Source: a virus
Lineage: Duplodnaviria; Heunggongvirae; Uroviricota; Caudoviricetes
Direction: 5' to 3' (one strand)
Length of the DNA stretch: 64,000 nt
Virus record (IMG/VR): IMGVR_UViG_3300035184_001394
Span: 1 to 64,000 of that record
The notes below the pieces were generated by a model, which saw only the letters and a list, made by a program, of their open reading frames with translations, ran no database searches and was not told the DNA's origin. Within the stretch, counting starts at the first letter, position 1. The number at the start of each line of letters is the position of its first letter. The position numbers and the translations under genes are program-made. Below, in pieces: positions 1 to 10,748 of this stretch.

Positions 1-728
1 ATCATGTTTGCATCAATACGTTCAGCAATACGTTCTTCAGCCATTTCCATTGTAATATACAGTACGTCCTTTCCGTACATCAGATGGTTTGCAGCCATAT
101 GACATTTAATTAACGACTTACCGCCACCAGTAGTTGCTAGTAATACTGTCATTGACTTGCGAGGTAGACCACCTTTGGTAATTGTATTAAGCAAGTCAAT
201 ATCAAAGGGAACTCGTTCTTCTTTCTTATGATAGAAATCGTATCGACCTTCGTATTCTTCTAGATAATCATGACCAACGCTCGAGTCAAAACTGATACCT
301 AGTGAGTCTTGTAAAAGTTTTGGTATTGAACCCTTACCTTCTTCAGTACCATCTTTAGAGCCTTCATCATCAGCATCTAGGATATTAATTGCTTTACGAA
401 TAGAGTTATAAAGATCTTTATTCTGGCAAAACTTTTCAGTTTCATCGAATAGAAATTGAGTATTTGTATCTTTATCAACTTTCAATTCACTGATAGAACT
501 CATTATTTCAGAATAAGATGTTTCGTTTAAGTCTTTACGATTATCAATCGAGATTCGCAGAGCCTCCAATGAAGGAGGCGCCTTATATTGTTCAACATAA
601 TCGCGATAAGAATCAAAGATTTTACGGTGTGTGTTATCATCAAAATATTCGTCTTTAATAAAAGGATATACTTTTGCGTAGTATTCGTTATTATAGACTA
701 AATTAGATAGTATCGTTGTTTCCATCAT
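1..728 (-). CDS. 41: gp41 DNA primase-helicase (DnaB-like), N-terminal 242 aa; 3' end lies beyond the window start
   Basis: Reverse-complement translation from ATG at 728/725 gives MMETTILSNLVYNNEYYAKVYPFIKDEYF...GGGKSL...LYITMEMAEE...RIDANM, collinear with T4 gp41 N-terminus and the Walker A/helicase motifs. Overlaps the uvsX-C stop by about 26 nt. Confidence 0.85.
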   Translation of the reverse strand, partial: MMETTILSNLVYNNEYYAKVYPFIKDEYFDDNTHRKIFDSYRDYVEQYKAPPSLEALRISIDNRKDLNETSYSEIMSSISELKVDKDTNTQFLFDETEKFCQNKDLYNSIRKAINILDADDEGSKDGTEEGKGSIPKLLQDSLGISFDSSVGHDYLEEYEGRYDFYHKKEERVPFDIDLLNTITKGGLPRKSMTVLLATTGGGKSLIKCHMAANHLMYGKDVLYITMEMAEERIAERIDANM

Positions 729-1245
729 CTTTCATTTTTCCTGGTATAGTCAATTTATATTTACGTTCGATAAAGTTGTTAAATGTTTCGTTTTTAACAA
801 GAGCTTCGAAGAATTTATCATCAGAACCTAAGTCTTTCTGTCTACGCTTAGGTTCAACAAGCTCACCAGTTTCTTGGTCAACAACATTATACCAGCCTTG
901 AGTGGCGCCTTTTGCTATATGTCCAGATTCAATAGCTAAGTCAAACAATGCTGACCACTTTTGAATACCAGAATCATACAATACAGTGAATGGTAGTTTT
1001 GCTTTTTCACGAACAAAACGAGATTTTTCGATATTGATTGTAAATTTAAATCCTGCTAAATCAGTACCATCTTTTTCTTGAGACTTACTAATAATAAAGA
1101 TTTGATTTGCTGAATAATAGATACCAGTATTGTGTGTTACTATACCATTTTTGAGTACATAATGTTGCTCATCATAATTTTCAGTTGCTATTGATAAATC
1201 ATAAACCGGTTTTCTACCAACCTGTTTAACGTTAACTATTTTCAT
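703..1245 (-). CDS. uvsX: UvsX recombinase, C-terminal fragment. 39-aa split-intein C-half (IntC) fused to the 141-aa UvsX C-extein
   Basis: Starts MKIVNVKQVGRKPVYDLSIATENYDEQHYVLKNGIVTHN then TGIYYSANQIFIISKSQEKDGTDLAGFKF... The HN/T junction and VYDL...NGI.xHN match intein blocks F/G. The remainder aligns to T4 UvsX after its GGG|TG site. Own SD (AAGGAAAC) lies in the 53-nt gap upstream. Confidence 0.8.
   Translation of the reverse strand: MKIVNVKQVGRKPVYDLSIATENYDEQHYVLKNGIVTHNTGIYYSANQIFIISKSQEKDGTDLAGFKFTINIEKSRFVREKAKLPFTVLYDSGIQKWSALFDLAIESGHIAKGATQGWYNVVDQETGELVEPKRRQKDLGSDDKFFEALVKNETFNNFIERKYKLTIPGKMKDDGNNDTI
1129..1245 (-). other. IntC, the split-intein C-terminal half within the uvsX-C ORF
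   Basis: 39 aa ending in HN, followed by a Thr +1 extein residue. Close resemblance to DnaE-type IntC (e.g. ...VYDIGV..HNF.LKNGFIASN). Confidence 0.75.
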
Positions 1246-1298
1246 TTTGTTTCCTTATTTCATTAAGATATAGCTTTCTAGCTAGAGCAATTGTATCA

Positions 1299-2204
1299 CT
1301 AAATAACAGTACAATCCATTCCAACAACTAAATCTTTAGCTTCAACCCATTCTTCGTTAACCAAGAATTTATGTTTATCTGAAACAGTTGCTTTAAATCC
1401 ATCTTCAAATTCAACTTCATAACATTCTGGATTGCCATCTTCAAGTGTATCAGGGTTCCAAACATGACTTACAACTTTATCACCGTTTAGAGTAATAACT
1501 TTTTCGCCAACATTGAAGTCTTCAACATTCTTAAGACCATCTGGTGTTTGAATTTCTGTGCCTTCAACTACGCAACCACCAGATACAATATTCTTAGGAA
1601 ACATACCAATTTCTTGATAGATATGATTAACAGCTAAACAAGGAATGTTTCTTGTAGTTAGCTTTGGAGTTATGATGCGAAATAAAGATTTAAGTTGCTT
1701 AGCACGAGTCATATCAGCAGCTGAGTTATCTTTCATAGCATCGTCAACTTCTTTCTTAGAAGCTAAGTTACCGATAGAATCGATCATGATGAATACACGA
1801 TCTTTCTTATCAATCTGGTCTAATCGCTTAACGATATCAAATTTAAGCTGTTCAACATCTTCGATTGGAATATGTAGTACACGTGACGTATCAATATCAA
1901 AACTTTCTAAATAATCTGGTGTAATACCAAATTCTGAATCATACAACAAAGCAACACCATCTTTATATTTTTCAAGATATGCTTTCATACAATACAGTGA
2001 TAGTAGAGTTTTGAAACTTTTTGATGCACCAGCGACAACAGTTAGACCTGGGATTAAACCACCTTTAAGTGAACCACTAAAAGCGATATTCACAATTGGT
2101 AATTCAGTCTGAATTGGTTCTTTTTCGTCAAAGAAAGCAGATTTATTTACAACACCAGCTTGTTTGATTGAACCGGATTTTAACATTTTATCTAAAAGAC
2201 TCAT
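1299..2204 (-). CDS. uvsX: UvsX recombinase, N-terminal fragment. 210-aa RecA-like N-extein fused to a 91-aa split-intein N-half (IntN)
   Basis: MSLLDKMLKSG...GASKSFKT...DSEFGITP...MTRAKQLKSLFRIITP...CLAVNHIYQ...KNIVSGG is collinear with T4 UvsX. It is then followed by CVVEGTEIQT...ATVSDKHKF...DCTVI-stop, which carries intein blocks A/B. Stop codon and a 53-nt intergenic gap precede the IntC ORF. Confidence 0.8.
   Translation of the reverse strand: MSLLDKMLKSGSIKQAGVVNKSAFFDEKEPIQTELPIVNIAFSGSLKGGLIPGLTVVAGASKSFKTLLSLYCMKAYLEKYKDGVALLYDSEFGITPDYLESFDIDTSRVLHIPIEDVEQLKFDIVKRLDQIDKKDRVFIMIDSIGNLASKKEVDDAMKDNSAADMTRAKQLKSLFRIITPKLTTRNIPCLAVNHIYQEIGMFPKNIVSGGCVVEGTEIQTPDGLKNVEDFNVGEKVITLNGDKVVSHVWNPDTLEDGNPECYEVEFEDGFKATVSDKHKFLVNEEWVEAKDLVVGMDCTVI
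1302..1574 (-). other. IntN, the split-intein N-terminal half at the 3' end of the uvsX-N ORF
   Basis: Begins with Cys1 (CVVEGTEI). Block B-like T..H (ATVSDKHKF). 91 aa is typical of DnaE-type IntN. The ORF terminates immediately after it. Confidence 0.75.
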
Positions 2205-4436: not shown

Positions 4437-5114
4437 TTAAATTTCTTCAAATAAAACGTTATTAATATATCTATCTTTAGCTTGTTCTGATATGCCCATA
4501 GCAAGTATAGATCTATGCAGGTGCTTATTCATCTTCTGATTTTCACAATATTTGTTAAGTTGAGTTTTAGTTGGTAAGGTAGTAATCATTTTAATATCAT
4601 TGCAAGAAGCCAAATAAGCCTTAATAAGGTTAGTAGATAAACAAATCAACTGTTCTAACTCATCACCATAAGTGATAGAACCAGCAGCAACCATGTTGTC
4701 TGAGAATATTTCAGTAGCCCATTCAGGTAAATCTCTTGGTTTATTCCATTTAATATCCTTAACAGACGCTTTAAACAGTTCGCATAATGGATGAACTTGA
4801 TCTTTTATAACAGGAGAAAAGTCAAAAAACGAACCACTTATTTTAGTTTTAGATGCAACTATATCAAAACCAAGAATAGGTAAGTTAACATTTTCTCTTG
4901 GAAATATATTGATATGTAGCAACCACATTCTACCATCGTTAATCGTTTTCAAATGACACTTTCTAATGTTATCACTACACCAGAAAGAATCAGTCCACCC
5001 ATCGAATTGCTGATCATGTTTTTCGTTTATAAACGGTTTTAAATGATTATTAAACGTTTCGCTAAGACTTGATGCAAATGTATCAAGTTTATCCCAGAGT
5101 GGATTGATATCCAT
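4437..5114 (-). CDS. ferredoxin-dependent bilin reductase (PebS/PcyA/PcyX family)
   Basis: WLLHINIFPRENVNLPILGFDIVASKTKISGSFFDFSPV matches the FDBR core (hhh.FP....d.P.fG.D.v.....i...hhD.sP). Start overlaps the heme oxygenase stop (ATGA). Confidence 0.7.
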   Translation of the reverse strand: MDINPLWDKLDTFASSLSETFNNHLKPFINEKHDQQFDGWTDSFWCSDNIRKCHLKTINDGRMWLLHINIFPRENVNLPILGFDIVASKTKISGSFFDFSPVIKDQVHPLCELFKASVKDIKWNKPRDLPEWATEIFSDNMVAAGSITYGDELEQLICLSTNLIKAYLASCNDIKMITTLPTKTQLNKYCENQKMNKHLHRSILAMGISEQAKDRYINNVLFEEI

Positions 5115-5689
5115 TATAGATCATCAACTTCAAAATCTTCACCTTCAAAATTATCAACTAATTCTAAAAATAATAGCTCTGCAAACTTAAAACAGACAAT
5201 AGCTTCTGGGGCCATATCATTATTTAACATACTACGAAGATCTGTGATCAACTGTTTGCGACCAGTAAACTCATACATTGTACCAGAACCAGGGACTCTC
5301 TTTTTGATTATTTGACCACCATGTAAATCACCAAAATGCCGAACGTACAGATGAGCTAATAGCTTATCATGTTCTCCTTTTGCGCTAAGCTCGGTTATAT
5401 GACTAATATATGAACTAACTGATTCGAGGTTTTCGGTTATTTCTTCAAGTCCATACTCATCTTCAAGTCCATGCATATCTTGCATTATATGAGAAGCTCG
5501 AAAAACAGTTTTAAGTTTTGACGGAATTGTCACTAACGACTCAAGTGCTTCATAAATCTCATACTGGGCCGAGAGATACTGGTAATATAGTAGTGGATTT
5601 ATTCTTCCGCCTAATAATATTTCAGCAAAATCTGAGCCTTCTATATTATTATGATTCTCTTTGGTCAGTTCTCTTAAGTTTAGTGTCAT
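5114..5689 (-). CDS. ho1: heme oxygenase
   Basis: AHLYVRHFGDLHGGQII is the HO signature (cf. YVRYLGDLSGGQ). Translationally coupled to the downstream bilin reductase. Confidence 0.8.
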   Translation of the reverse strand: MTLNLRELTKENHNNIEGSDFAEILLGGRINPLLYYQYLSAQYEIYEALESLVTIPSKLKTVFRASHIMQDMHGLEDEYGLEEITENLESVSSYISHITELSAKGEHDKLLAHLYVRHFGDLHGGQIIKKRVPGSGTMYEFTGRKQLITDLRSMLNNDMAPEAIVCFKFAELLFLELVDNFEGEDFEVDDL

Positions 5690-6577: not shown

Positions 6578-7189
6578 TTAATCAACTTTGGCTTTTTTCT
6601 TAGCTTCGCGTTTTTCTAATTTGCACGAACGTTTCTCTAGGCGCAGTAAAACTTCTTTACCATCCATCCACAAATCTTTATTATTAAGCATATCTTTGAT
6701 TTCTCTTTTTGTTAAAAAACCGCAGTAAACATCTCTTAATAATTTAGCTGACCAACAGCGTTCATGAATTATTTGACTATACATTTCTCCACCTTTACCA
6801 GAGGTTTTTCCAGCATAGTTGTGGAACATAAACATTGTATGACTAGATAATTCGAATACATCAGCACTCAAGAATATCATTGTTGCCGCTGACATACAAG
6901 CGCCTTCAACTGAAGCAATTACAGTAGCCCGACACTCGCGCAAAACTCGCATCATCTGTATAGCAGCAAGTAGATCACCACCACACGAGTTAATATGTAT
7001 ATGTACTGTATCAGCTTCACTGCAGTTTCTAATTATATTAAACCATTCGACGTAATATTCTGGAGTTTCTACTGGTCCTGATAAGTAAAAATCATGAACA
7101 ACATCAGTTGATCTGGAAGTAAAGAAATCCTTAGATTTGCTTGGCTGCAGTAAATCTAAGAAGTTATTATCAAATTTATTTTTTTTCAT
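6578..7189 (-). CDS. ClpP-like serine protease subunit
   Basis: INSCGGDLLAAIQMMRVL..ATVIASVEGACMSAATMIFLSA...MFMFHNYAG matches the ClpP G-G/S-M-A/H-Q-P regions. Confidence 0.65.
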   Translation of the reverse strand: MKKNKFDNNFLDLLQPSKSKDFFTSRSTDVVHDFYLSGPVETPEYYVEWFNIIRNCSEADTVHIHINSCGGDLLAAIQMMRVLRECRATVIASVEGACMSAATMIFLSADVFELSSHTMFMFHNYAGKTSGKGGEMYSQIIHERCWSAKLLRDVYCGFLTKREIKDMLNNKDLWMDGKEVLLRLEKRSCKLEKREAKKKAKVD

Positions 7190-9884: not shown

Positions 9885-10748
9885 TTAATTTGTGCGCATA
9901 TCCAATATCGGCATTCCGCCTTCACCAAGGATGGTATATGGCAATTGACCATTCCATTGTTGTGCTTCAGTTAAGTCGACAATAAGTGGATTACTTTTCA
10001 GTGCAGCAGCTTTTGCTTTAATAGCGGAAGCTTCAGCTTCACCTTTTAATCGAATTGAGTTCGCTTCAGCTTCAGCAACAAAGTTAATACCGTCAGCTTT
10101 TGCTTTTGCTATGTTAACACCCTGTTGAGCAACTAGTGCTTGCTTATCAAGATTGAATTGTTCAGCATCAGCTAAGTTTTTAGCAGTCTGTTTAGTTTCA
10201 ATTGATTGCAAGTACTTTGGTGGTAACGTAATATTCTCAATTTGAATGTTATCAACTTTGACTGGGAACGGAGTCATTTCTTCAATTAATAATGATTCAA
10301 TCAACATAATAGCAGAACTACGATCTTGTATTAACTTTTCCGCAGTAAACTTAGGAATAACATCCTTGGTAGCAGAACGGAATCGTGGATCTAATATTCG
10401 ATTTTCAAATTGTTGAAGGCCGCCGTATTGTTTAAATAATTCAAGCGCAGCAGTTTTGTCGACTGTCCAGTTAACAGACACCTTCACTGTGACTGGCATT
10501 TGTTCTGCAGTGCTTGAAGTCATTGCTTCTTCGTTTTTACGAGTACGGATTTCAATTTCTTCGACAGTATCTGCGAATGGTATTTTAAATCGCAAACCTG
10601 GGTTTTGTTGACTTTTTGCTTCAGAGAAGCGTTTAACGATTCCCACGTGTCCTTCAGATACAGTGTACCAGCTTGACCACAATAGAAGAAATATTAGTAG
10701 TCCAATGATAGATGCTACGATAGTTTTAATTGGTAATGTTTTTTGCAT
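9885..10748 (-). CDS. SPFH/band-7 (prohibitin/HflKC-like) membrane protein
   Basis: N-terminal TM helix then an SPFH domain (VSEGHVGIVKRFSE...). Ala/Glu-rich coiled-coil tail typical of HflK/C and prohibitins. Confidence 0.75.
   Translation of the reverse strand: MQKTLPIKTIVASIIGLLIFLLLWSSWYTVSEGHVGIVKRFSEAKSQQNPGLRFKIPFADTVEEIEIRTRKNEEAMTSSTAEQMPVTVKVSVNWTVDKTAALELFKQYGGLQQFENRILDPRFRSATKDVIPKFTAEKLIQDRSSAIMLIESLLIEEMTPFPVKVDNIQIENITLPPKYLQSIETKQTAKNLADAEQFNLDKQALVAQQGVNIAKAKADGINFVAEAEANSIRLKGEAEASAIKAKAAALKSNPLIVDLTEAQQWNGQLPYTILGEGGMPILDMRTN

Follow-up and report, generated by a model that had tools for sequence, protein, structure and literature searches.

The window, by which we mean the whole stretch of 64,000 nucleotides analysed here (positions 1 to 64,000 of the IMG/VR record IMGVR_UViG_3300035184_001394, from an uncultured T4-like phage of the Caudoviricetes), encodes the recombinase UvsX in two adjacent open reading frames (ORFs), the first of which ends, and the second of which begins, with one half of an intein. 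We conclude, with a probability of about 0.85, that the element is a genuine, naturally split class-1 mini-intein, inserted at the conserved GG|TG site of uvsX and belonging to the "fractured gene" family of phages. The window is unusual mainly in the apparent loss of the homing endonuclease gene (HEG) that normally lies between the two halves.

Anatomy of the split gene and identity of the intein

The first ORF (ORF1; 2204..1299, 301 aa) and the second (ORF2; 1245..703, 180 aa) are both on the minus strand, as are all the features of the locus described here. ORF1 starts with the N-extein (1575..2204), which covers UvsX residues 1-210, up to ..NIVSGG, and represents the RecA-fold ATPase core, with a match to Pfam RecA (PF00154) at residues 52-203. 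The N-extein runs directly into the N-terminal intein half (IntN; 1302..1574), a segment of 91 aa that reads CVVEGTEI...DCTVI. A TAG stop codon (1299..1301), with an in-frame TGA directly after it, closes the ORF. The spacer that follows (1246..1298, 53 nt) resembles the 3' remnant of a homing-endonuclease cassette and has within it the Shine-Dalgarno sequence AAGGAAAC (1256..1249), 6 nt ahead of the ATG at 1245. ORF2 opens with the C-terminal intein half (IntC; 1129..1245), 39 aa long and reading MKIV...IVTHN, and continues into the C-extein (706..1128), that is, Thr+1 and 140 further residues (UvsX 211-351), with the T4_UVSX_C domain included; its stop codon is at 705..703. Pfam T4_UVSX_C and NCBIfam RecA matches were found in the C-extein at positions 213-296. 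The RecA ATPase core and the T4 UvsX C-terminal domain, encoded in a T4-like replication/recombination module, identify the gene as uvsX. This two-piece layout had been proposed in an earlier reading of the same DNA (here, the sequence-only reading), all the coordinates and lengths of which were reproduced to the base; its statement that no homing endonuclease lies between the halves also held, as the 53 nt between IntN and IntC contain no ORF.

When conceptually spliced, the two exteins form a protein of 351 aa that aligned with T4 UvsX (3io5; E=7e-95) without a gap over the junction (..fpknivsgg|tgiyysan.. in the window and ..fsktvmggg|tgpmysad.. in T4), which confirms the insertion point previously proposed from a comparison with the T4 protein. 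Excision of 446 nt (273 + 3 + 53 + 117) gives back a gapless UvsX. An empty allele was also found: contig L131 codes for an intein-free UvsX of 351 aa (P0063), the N-extein of which is 98% identical to that of the window. Gene order is shared between L131 and the window (bilin reductase, gp33-like, gp59, gp32, a small ORF and uvsX), and the difference between the two uvsX genes is exactly the 446-nt element; up to 180 nt away from the junction, the flanking nucleotide sequences are 91-98% identical, a figure that is 90% for the gene as a whole.

The IntN frame contains five stop codons ahead of the ATG of ORF2, and IntC lies in a different frame, with two stops in the spacer. A separate contig of 2.3 kb bears the identical sequence. 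The split is thus not a simple sequencing error, in agreement with the sequence-only reading, which had argued for a true split rather than a frameshift. The IntN fragment is, moreover, 91-94 aa long in 108 of 110 split homologues.

That an intein bridges the two uvsX ORFs, as had also been suggested, is now backed by motifs, profile matches and a structural model that agree, and the similarity greatly exceeds what chance would produce. The NCBIfam profile intein_Cterm (TIGR01443) matched ORF2 with 24.2 bits (cutoff, 15.6), and the matches of IntN to Hint (Hint_2) and intein_Nterm profiles of Pfam and NCBIfam fall slightly under their cutoffs. In phmmer searches, the two halves fused into a single sequence of 130 aa matched the gp41-1 intein (6qaz) over residues 6-130 (E=2.4e-5). 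From an alignment of three contiguous homologues, AlphaFold2 gave an all-beta model for the fused halves, with a mean predicted local distance difference test (pLDDT) score of 85.5. When this model was compared with the Protein Data Bank (PDB) using Foldseek, each of the top 50 matches was an intein or another domain of the HINT superfamily, and the best was again the gp41-1 intein (E=1.7e-8; template modelling (TM) scores of 0.79/0.80; root-mean-square deviation of 2.4 Å).

The class-1 catalytic set is complete in the window: Cys1, block B, block F (VYDLS), the terminal His-Asn of block G and Thr+1. Cys1, Ser65 and His68 are invariant across 110 homologous IntN sequences; the terminal His-Asn is present in at least 90% of the IntC sequences, the family consensus of which ends in ..NGvvtHN; and Thr+1 was found in 72 of the 72 homologues in which the residue could be determined, the window junction reading ..THN|T. 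The histidine motif of block B is S65-D-K-H68, with Ser at the usual Thr position, as in gp41-1. The Cys1 of block A noted in the sequence-only reading therefore stands, and its block B does not: the motif is S-x-x-H and not T..H, and the Thr noted there lies two residues further upstream. The element combines an in-frame insertion that can be removed to restore the host protein, blocks A/B and F/G with Thr+1, and a HINT fold, and its halves are separate ORFs with their own stop and start codons, cut at the position usually occupied by an endonuclease domain. We regard this position as the canonical split site because contiguous relatives carry a linker of 3-7 aa there and HEG ORFs occupy the same point in others.

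IntN also has a family-specific loop, W39-N-P-x-T-L-E-x-G-x-P-E-C51, in which W39, P41, T43 and L44 are invariant. The loop ends in a non-catalytic cysteine, Cys51, which is also invariant; another cysteine of IntN, Cys88, is conserved in 76% of the sequences. The loop 39-51 together with Cys88 could be a redox or structural feature. In class-3 inteins the nucleophile is an internal Cys of block F. Assignment to this class was considered and rejected: despite a good structural match of the model to the Msm DnaB intein, Cys1 is invariant and VYDLS has no internal Cys.

Dassa et al. (2009; PMC2677866) described "fractured gene" split inteins at metagenomic loci of T4-like cyanophages, usually with a HEG between the halves; gp41-7 was the single locus without one. 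The uvsX locus is like gp41-1 and the other fractured genes in that a replication/recombination gene is cut into adjacent ORFs of the same strand by a canonical split mini-intein, and its fragment sizes fall with those of the gp41-1 group (about 88-91 aa and 37-39 aa). It differs from the usual fractured gene, and parallels gp41-7, in having no HEG between the halves. Unlike gp41-1, the host gene is uvsX and not the gp41 helicase gene, identity is only about 22%, and the alignment to gp41-1 shows a 5-residue gap within the loop from W39 to C51, which is specific to the uvsX family. The +1 residue of gp41-1 is Ser, whereas it is Thr in the window.

The sequence-only reading had called the intein "DnaE-type" and had seen a close resemblance to the cyanobacterial DnaE halves. 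The window intein does share with Npu and Ssp DnaE the canonical split position, a short IntC ending in ..N, an acidic IntN with a basic start of IntC, and the lack of a HEG between the halves. However, the similarity of the fused intein to Npu DnaE is weak (E=0.004-0.05) and confined to IntN residues 45-91 and IntC, its bit scores are 17-20.5 with the DnaE inteins against 27.8 with gp41-1, and Npu DnaE ranked 11 among the fold matches (TM 0.70). The halves of the cyanobacterial DnaE split intein are encoded at distant loci and its +1 residue is Cys. Here, in contrast, the host gene is uvsX, the halves lie 53 nt apart and the +1 residue is Thr. Since the nearest relative in both sequence and structure is the phage gp41-1 intein, the label is not appropriate and the resemblance is not close.

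Two further comparisons concern hosts and split architecture. The inteins of Mycobacterium tuberculosis (Mtu) RecA and Pyrococcus horikoshii (Pho) RadA also reside in RecA-family proteins and were recovered as structural matches (ranks 14 and 41), but they are contiguous, occupy other insertion sites and are unrelated in sequence beyond the fold; we take the Mtu RecA site to be about 40 residues further towards the C-terminus and the Pho RadA site to be in the P-loop. VidaL (PDB 6vgv; structural match rank 17) is likewise a naturally split phage-type intein from metagenomes, but with an atypical split and an IntN of 16 aa, compared with 91/39 here, and it was absent from the phmmer matches of the window intein at E<=1. 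One of the VidaL inteins has reportedly been named for a host gene that encodes UvsX. The host gene and the sequence family of the window intein are both new in comparison with the gp41, NrdA, NrdJ, IMPDH and DnaE examples described before.

The uvsX intein family and the history of the spacer

To place the window among its relatives, we surveyed 41 viral and 80 metagenomic loci, on which the exteins and intein halves were mapped and which yielded 77 distinct intein sequences. In most of these (63/77), the split halves were at least 600 nt apart, with an HNH-like (29), a GIY-YIG-like (25) or another (9) ORF in the gap; representatives of these ORFs carried NUMOD3, NUMOD1, I-TevI DNA-binding or HNH signatures. 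Gaps of 150-600 nt were found in 6/77, some with truncated HEG remnants (for example, L025, L070 and L081). In 5/77 the gap was shorter than 150 nt and contained no ORF: the window (53 nt), L058 (93), L059 (80), L068 (126) and L078 (113), L061 (63 nt) being an additional short-gap locus. The remaining 3/77 were contiguous (L013/L014/L063, L110 and L121). The short spacers are unrelated to one another, except for those of L058, L059 and L061, and the spacer of L068 retains coding for the C-terminal motif of an HNH enzyme, suggesting that the endonuclease was lost at least four times independently.

The nearest relatives of the window locus are L009/L010, on a 137-kb IMG/VR contig, and L130. Identity between L009 and the window is 90% over the N-extein and 91% over IntC and the adjacent extein. 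Between the halves, L009/L010 and L130 have an endonuclease of 229-237 aa and a 54-aa ORF. The window spacer is identical in 45/53 nt to L009 6746-6798 and in 44/53 nt to L130 4606-4658; in both relatives the matching stretch is the last 53 nt before IntC, comprising the 3' end of the 54-aa ORF and the Shine-Dalgarno sequence. Relative to L009 and L130, the window lacks 842-853 nt, starting directly after the IntN stop codon. As it matches the end of the endonuclease cassette in these relatives, the spacer is most likely a deletion remnant.

An ORF of 54-61 aa between HEG and IntC was seen in L009 (6648-6812), L130 (4508-4672), L001 (3433-3600) and L002 (3679-3864); the loci that contain it include those of two cultured phages, Thanatos-1 and PspYZU05. 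No Pfam family matched this ORF, which might encode a small protein in its own right or a DNA-binding tail that has become detached from the endonuclease.

The nucleotide identity profile of the window against L009 and L130 is discontinuous. Identity is about 85% in the N-extein, falls to 44-73% over IntN codons ~16-91 (window 1302-1530), and returns to 82-98% in the spacer, IntC and the C-extein; taken together, the flanking extein, the spacer and IntC range from 76% to 98%. In turn, the IntN of the window is 80% identical to IntN of the L050/L053 type. The IntN of the window is thus a patch swapped in from another lineage, which indicates lateral exchange of the IntN segment, independently of the host gene. 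The change from a HEG-bearing to a HEG-less locus coincides with the right edge of the patch. In the most economical reading, a recombination or deletion event would have removed the endonuclease while the translation signals of the IntC ORF were kept.

These observations suggest a history in which a contiguous uvsX mini-intein would first have been broken by the insertion of a free-standing HEG, giving the state of most relatives; about 0.85 kb, including the endonuclease, would later have been deleted in the lineage of the window, leaving the last 53 nt and the ribosome-binding site of IntC. Empty, contiguous, HEG-bearing and HEG-remnant alleles were all observed in the family. The proposal of Dassa et al. 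(PMC2677866) has the same stages, namely invasion of a mini-intein by a HEG followed by HEG loss, which gives free split inteins, and free-standing HEGs are known to target uvsX in T4 (SegA; PMC2988022), so that colonisation of this gene is not surprising. An alternative history, which would leave the splicing mechanism unchanged, is that the HEG-less split is older and that the cassette of HEG and 54-aa ORF entered the spacer later, in the lineages of L009 and L130. Such an insertion would fit the left end of the indel, which lies exactly at the IntN stop codon, and free-standing HEGs are known to enter intergenic spacers (PMC2988022). This alternative, however, needs the 54-aa ORF of L009 and L130 to have been made by read-through into a pre-existing spacer and leaves the origin of the split unexplained. 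Moreover, other short and intermediate gaps hold HEG coding remnants (L068, L025, L070 and L081), and HEG-bearing loci form the large majority across the whole diversity of the family. We thus consider the insertion history rather unlikely, and deletion of the endonuclease in the window lineage the better account.

The family is widespread. The intein occupies the same site in 118 of the 120 metagenomic database proteins that best match ORF1, in 115 cases as split forms of about 301-305 aa and in three as contiguous proteins of 485-492 aa (P0029, P0041 and P0043); the remaining two, P0063 among them, are intein-free UvsX proteins of 351 aa. A curated phage collection yielded about 19 distinct cultured Straboviridae with this IntN and IntC in uvsX. 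Among them are phages of Escherichia coli (HY03, ELT1, SYGD1, BYEP01 and RPN226), Proteus (PM2 and Pm5461), Yersinia (TG1), Klebsiella (Lion_ER11), Shigella (SP21535), Salmonella (SEA1, CF-SP2 and pSe_SNUABM_01), Enterobacter (UFV01 and EnC07), Pseudomonas (PspYZU05), Shewanella (Thanatos-1) and Vibrio (vB_VmeM-32 and EniLVp02). Their inteins are at the same site, with homologous IntN (48-62% identity) and IntC and with Thr+1. Unlike the 53 nt of the window, the gaps in all of these phages measure 514-1082 nt and contain a GIY-YIG/Seg-like or other HEG, sometimes with a small ORF; a HEG ORF was present between the halves in all seven examined. Between their UvsX exteins and those of the window, identity is about 45-52%; no cultured phage has a UvsX more than 54% identical to that of the window, and the phage collection contained no near-identical record. 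Paraglaciecola Antarctic GD virus 1, considered as a possible HEG-less cultured example, was discarded as its uvsX is uninterrupted.

In the records of the cultured carriers the proteins are named "RecA-like recombination protein" or "recombinase", and a HintC domain is noted in vB_VmeM-32 only. The ORFs for IntC and the C-terminal part of UvsX are labelled inconsistently, as "hypothetical protein", "portal protein" (SYGD1) or "poly-D-alanine transfer protein DltD" (P0134). Evidently, split uvsX escapes current annotation pipelines, and the "recombination protein" pairs of Straboviridae merit annotation as one intein-split uvsX. The sequence-only reading knew of no split intein in UvsX, which implied that this one is unique. 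A literature search of the searchable library found no paper that names one, Dassa et al. (2009) having UvsX as a mere neighbour gene, and in this sense the UvsX split intein may be undescribed; in databases and among cultured phages, as the counts above attest, it is common.

A search of 1.84 billion representative sequences with a profile of the intein gave 252 proteins at E<=1e-10. Nine top-ranking matches that were scanned (P0244-P0271) are largely UvsX-like, and some, such as P0250, P0271 and P0268, have two inteins. In P0250 a complete intein starts near residue 200, about 10 residues ahead of the IntN at the GG|TG site; in P0271 and P0268 the second intein lies within the N-terminal part. 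UvsX thus has at least two or three sites of intein insertion.

One gene family therefore displays all the proposed stages of a split intein (empty, contiguous, HEG-invaded, with a decaying HEG and HEG-free), sometimes in close genomes. With members in cultured coliphages, both the "gene-breaking" model and the persistence of split inteins after loss of the HEG are open to experiment. Specialists are unlikely to be surprised by the window locus itself; the family, for its part, is a rich and partly culturable system in which to follow split inteins through their life cycle, and one that supplies new parts for trans-splicing.

Trans-splicing and its alternatives

As uvsX is split over two ORFs that carry intein halves, a full-length recombinase would require trans-splicing. 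This requirement had been proposed in the sequence-only reading and is supported by the anatomy of the two ORFs, splicing itself being what that anatomy predicts. Protein trans-splicing to a UvsX of 39.4 kDa is, in our view, very probably the mechanism. No promoter-like or terminator-like site was found in the 53-nt spacer, which makes co-transcription of the two ORFs the default. The adjacent ORFs would be co-transcribed and translated separately into precursors with calculated masses of 33.5 kDa (UvsX(1-210)-IntN) and 20.6 kDa (IntC-UvsX(211-351)). IntN is strongly acidic (net charge -14, pI 4.2), and IntC has a basic N-terminal stretch, MKIVNVKQVGRKPV, the charge over the first 14 residues of IntC being +4. 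The two would associate into one HINT fold, the opposite charges fitting the electrostatic association of acidic and basic halves that is known in other split inteins (PMC2677866). An N-S acyl shift at Cys1, transesterification by Thr+1 and cyclisation of the terminal Asn of IntC would follow, and an O-N shift would finally link Gly210 to Thr211. The products would be a UvsX of 351 aa, with a calculated mass of 39.4 kDa, and the released intein halves.

Purifying selection acts on the two intein halves to an extent comparable with that on the exteins. In comparison with L009, the nonsynonymous and synonymous rates (dN/dS) were 0.05/1.2 for IntC, 0.06/0.79 for the N-extein and 0.09/1.4 for the C-extein; for IntN in comparison with L050, the proportions of nonsynonymous and synonymous differences (pN and pS) were 0.105 and 0.75.

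Several points weigh against a functional split intein with the history proposed above. Compared with the majority form of 35 aa, the IntC of the window has four inserted residues (..ATENYDEQ..), and this region has the lowest confidence of the model (pLDDT 67-73). Thr is less common as the +1 nucleophile than Cys or Ser, and often slower. No experimental trans-splicing of any member of the UvsX-intein family was found in the literature searched. Phages with the same split uvsX are viable in culture (HY03, PM2, TG1, Thanatos-1 and others), but T4 does not strictly need uvsX in the laboratory, so that viability with a split gene is not in itself proof of splicing. Finally, it is by parsimony that the HEG event is read as a deletion in the window and not as an insertion in the relatives.

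Some of these points could also be read in favour of non-covalent reassembly, in which the intein halves would serve as a dimerisation handle and UvsX would work as a two-chain enzyme without splicing. The literature searched gave no splicing data for the family, Thr+1 may be a poor nucleophile, and genes broken by HEGs are documented to yield two chains that function together (discussed in PMC2677866), as does the HEG-split NrdA of phage Aeh1, which works without an intein. Yet residues that serve the splicing chemistry only (Cys1, Ser65/His68, His-Asn and Thr+1) are invariant or nearly so, and this conservation spans lineages in which the exteins are just 42-60% identical. An unspliced complex would, moreover, leave a domain of 130 aa at the conserved GG|TG, a motif that adjoins the DNA-binding loop L2 according to a manual alignment to E. 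coli RecA. We therefore regard a two-chain UvsX as improbable.

It is still less probable that uvsX and its intein are a pseudogene, decaying since the deletion of the HEG cassette. The dispensability of uvsX in T4 in the laboratory and the mosaic IntN patch would be compatible with decay; both ORFs are, however, intact with start, stop and Shine-Dalgarno sequence, dN/dS values of about 0.04-0.15 apply to the exteins and the intein halves alike, every catalytic residue is present, and the same architecture has been kept in at least four independent HEG-less lineages. An assembly or sequencing artefact, in which the real gene would be a contiguous cis mini-intein like those of some relatives (P0029, P0041 and P0043; L013, L110 and L121; 3-7-aa linker) and the stop and spacer erroneous, is scarcely credible in view of the five and two stops in different frames, the second contig, the homology of the 53 nt to actual sequence in L009 and L130 and the uniform length of the IntN fragment.

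If the two precursors are indeed joined by trans-splicing, the step might be regulated. It is conceivable, if doubtful, that the HEG-free split intein is no longer a selfish remnant only but is kept as a post-translational switch, such that conditional splicing would time recombination-dependent replication during infection. Splicing could respond to redox state, with Cys51 (invariant) and Cys88 (mostly conserved) as the sensors, or else to single-stranded DNA or partner proteins, as reported for inteins of archaeal RadA and mycobacterial RecA. In addition, the dozens of natural variants of this compact split intein (91 + 35/39 aa, with Thr+1) are candidates for orthogonal trans-splicing tools.

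Genomic context

The window represents a T4-like replication/recombination and baseplate region, with a G+C content of 33% and genes for gp43 polymerase, a gp46-like SMC ATPase, UvsW, topoisomerase II subunits, gp59, gp32 and gp6; gp32 and gp59 are the neighbours of uvsX. No other Hint match was found among the ten largest ORFs of the window. Next to uvsX, an ORF on the minus strand (within 1-725) begins about 20 nt before the stop codon of the C-terminal uvsX ORF and runs off the left end of the window; its counterparts are partial genes of 233 aa in L008 and 309 aa in L131. In the cultured records examined, uvsX is followed by a small head-vertex/capsid-assembly gene and then by a gp41-type helicase gene.

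Directly upstream of gp59-gp32-uvsX lie genes for a heme oxygenase (5114-5689, minus strand; PF01126) and a ferredoxin-dependent bilin reductase (4437-5114, minus strand; PF05996), the latter being found at the same place in L131. The pair looks like an auxiliary cassette for pigment metabolism. Within a few kb of each other lie genes for a homologue of the ClpP/NfeD-like serine proteases and for an SPFH/Band-7 protein (6578-7189 and 9885-10748, minus strand). The pairing of NfeD with stomatin is typical of bacterial operons, and an NfeD-like/SPFH pair inside a phage replication module was unexpected.

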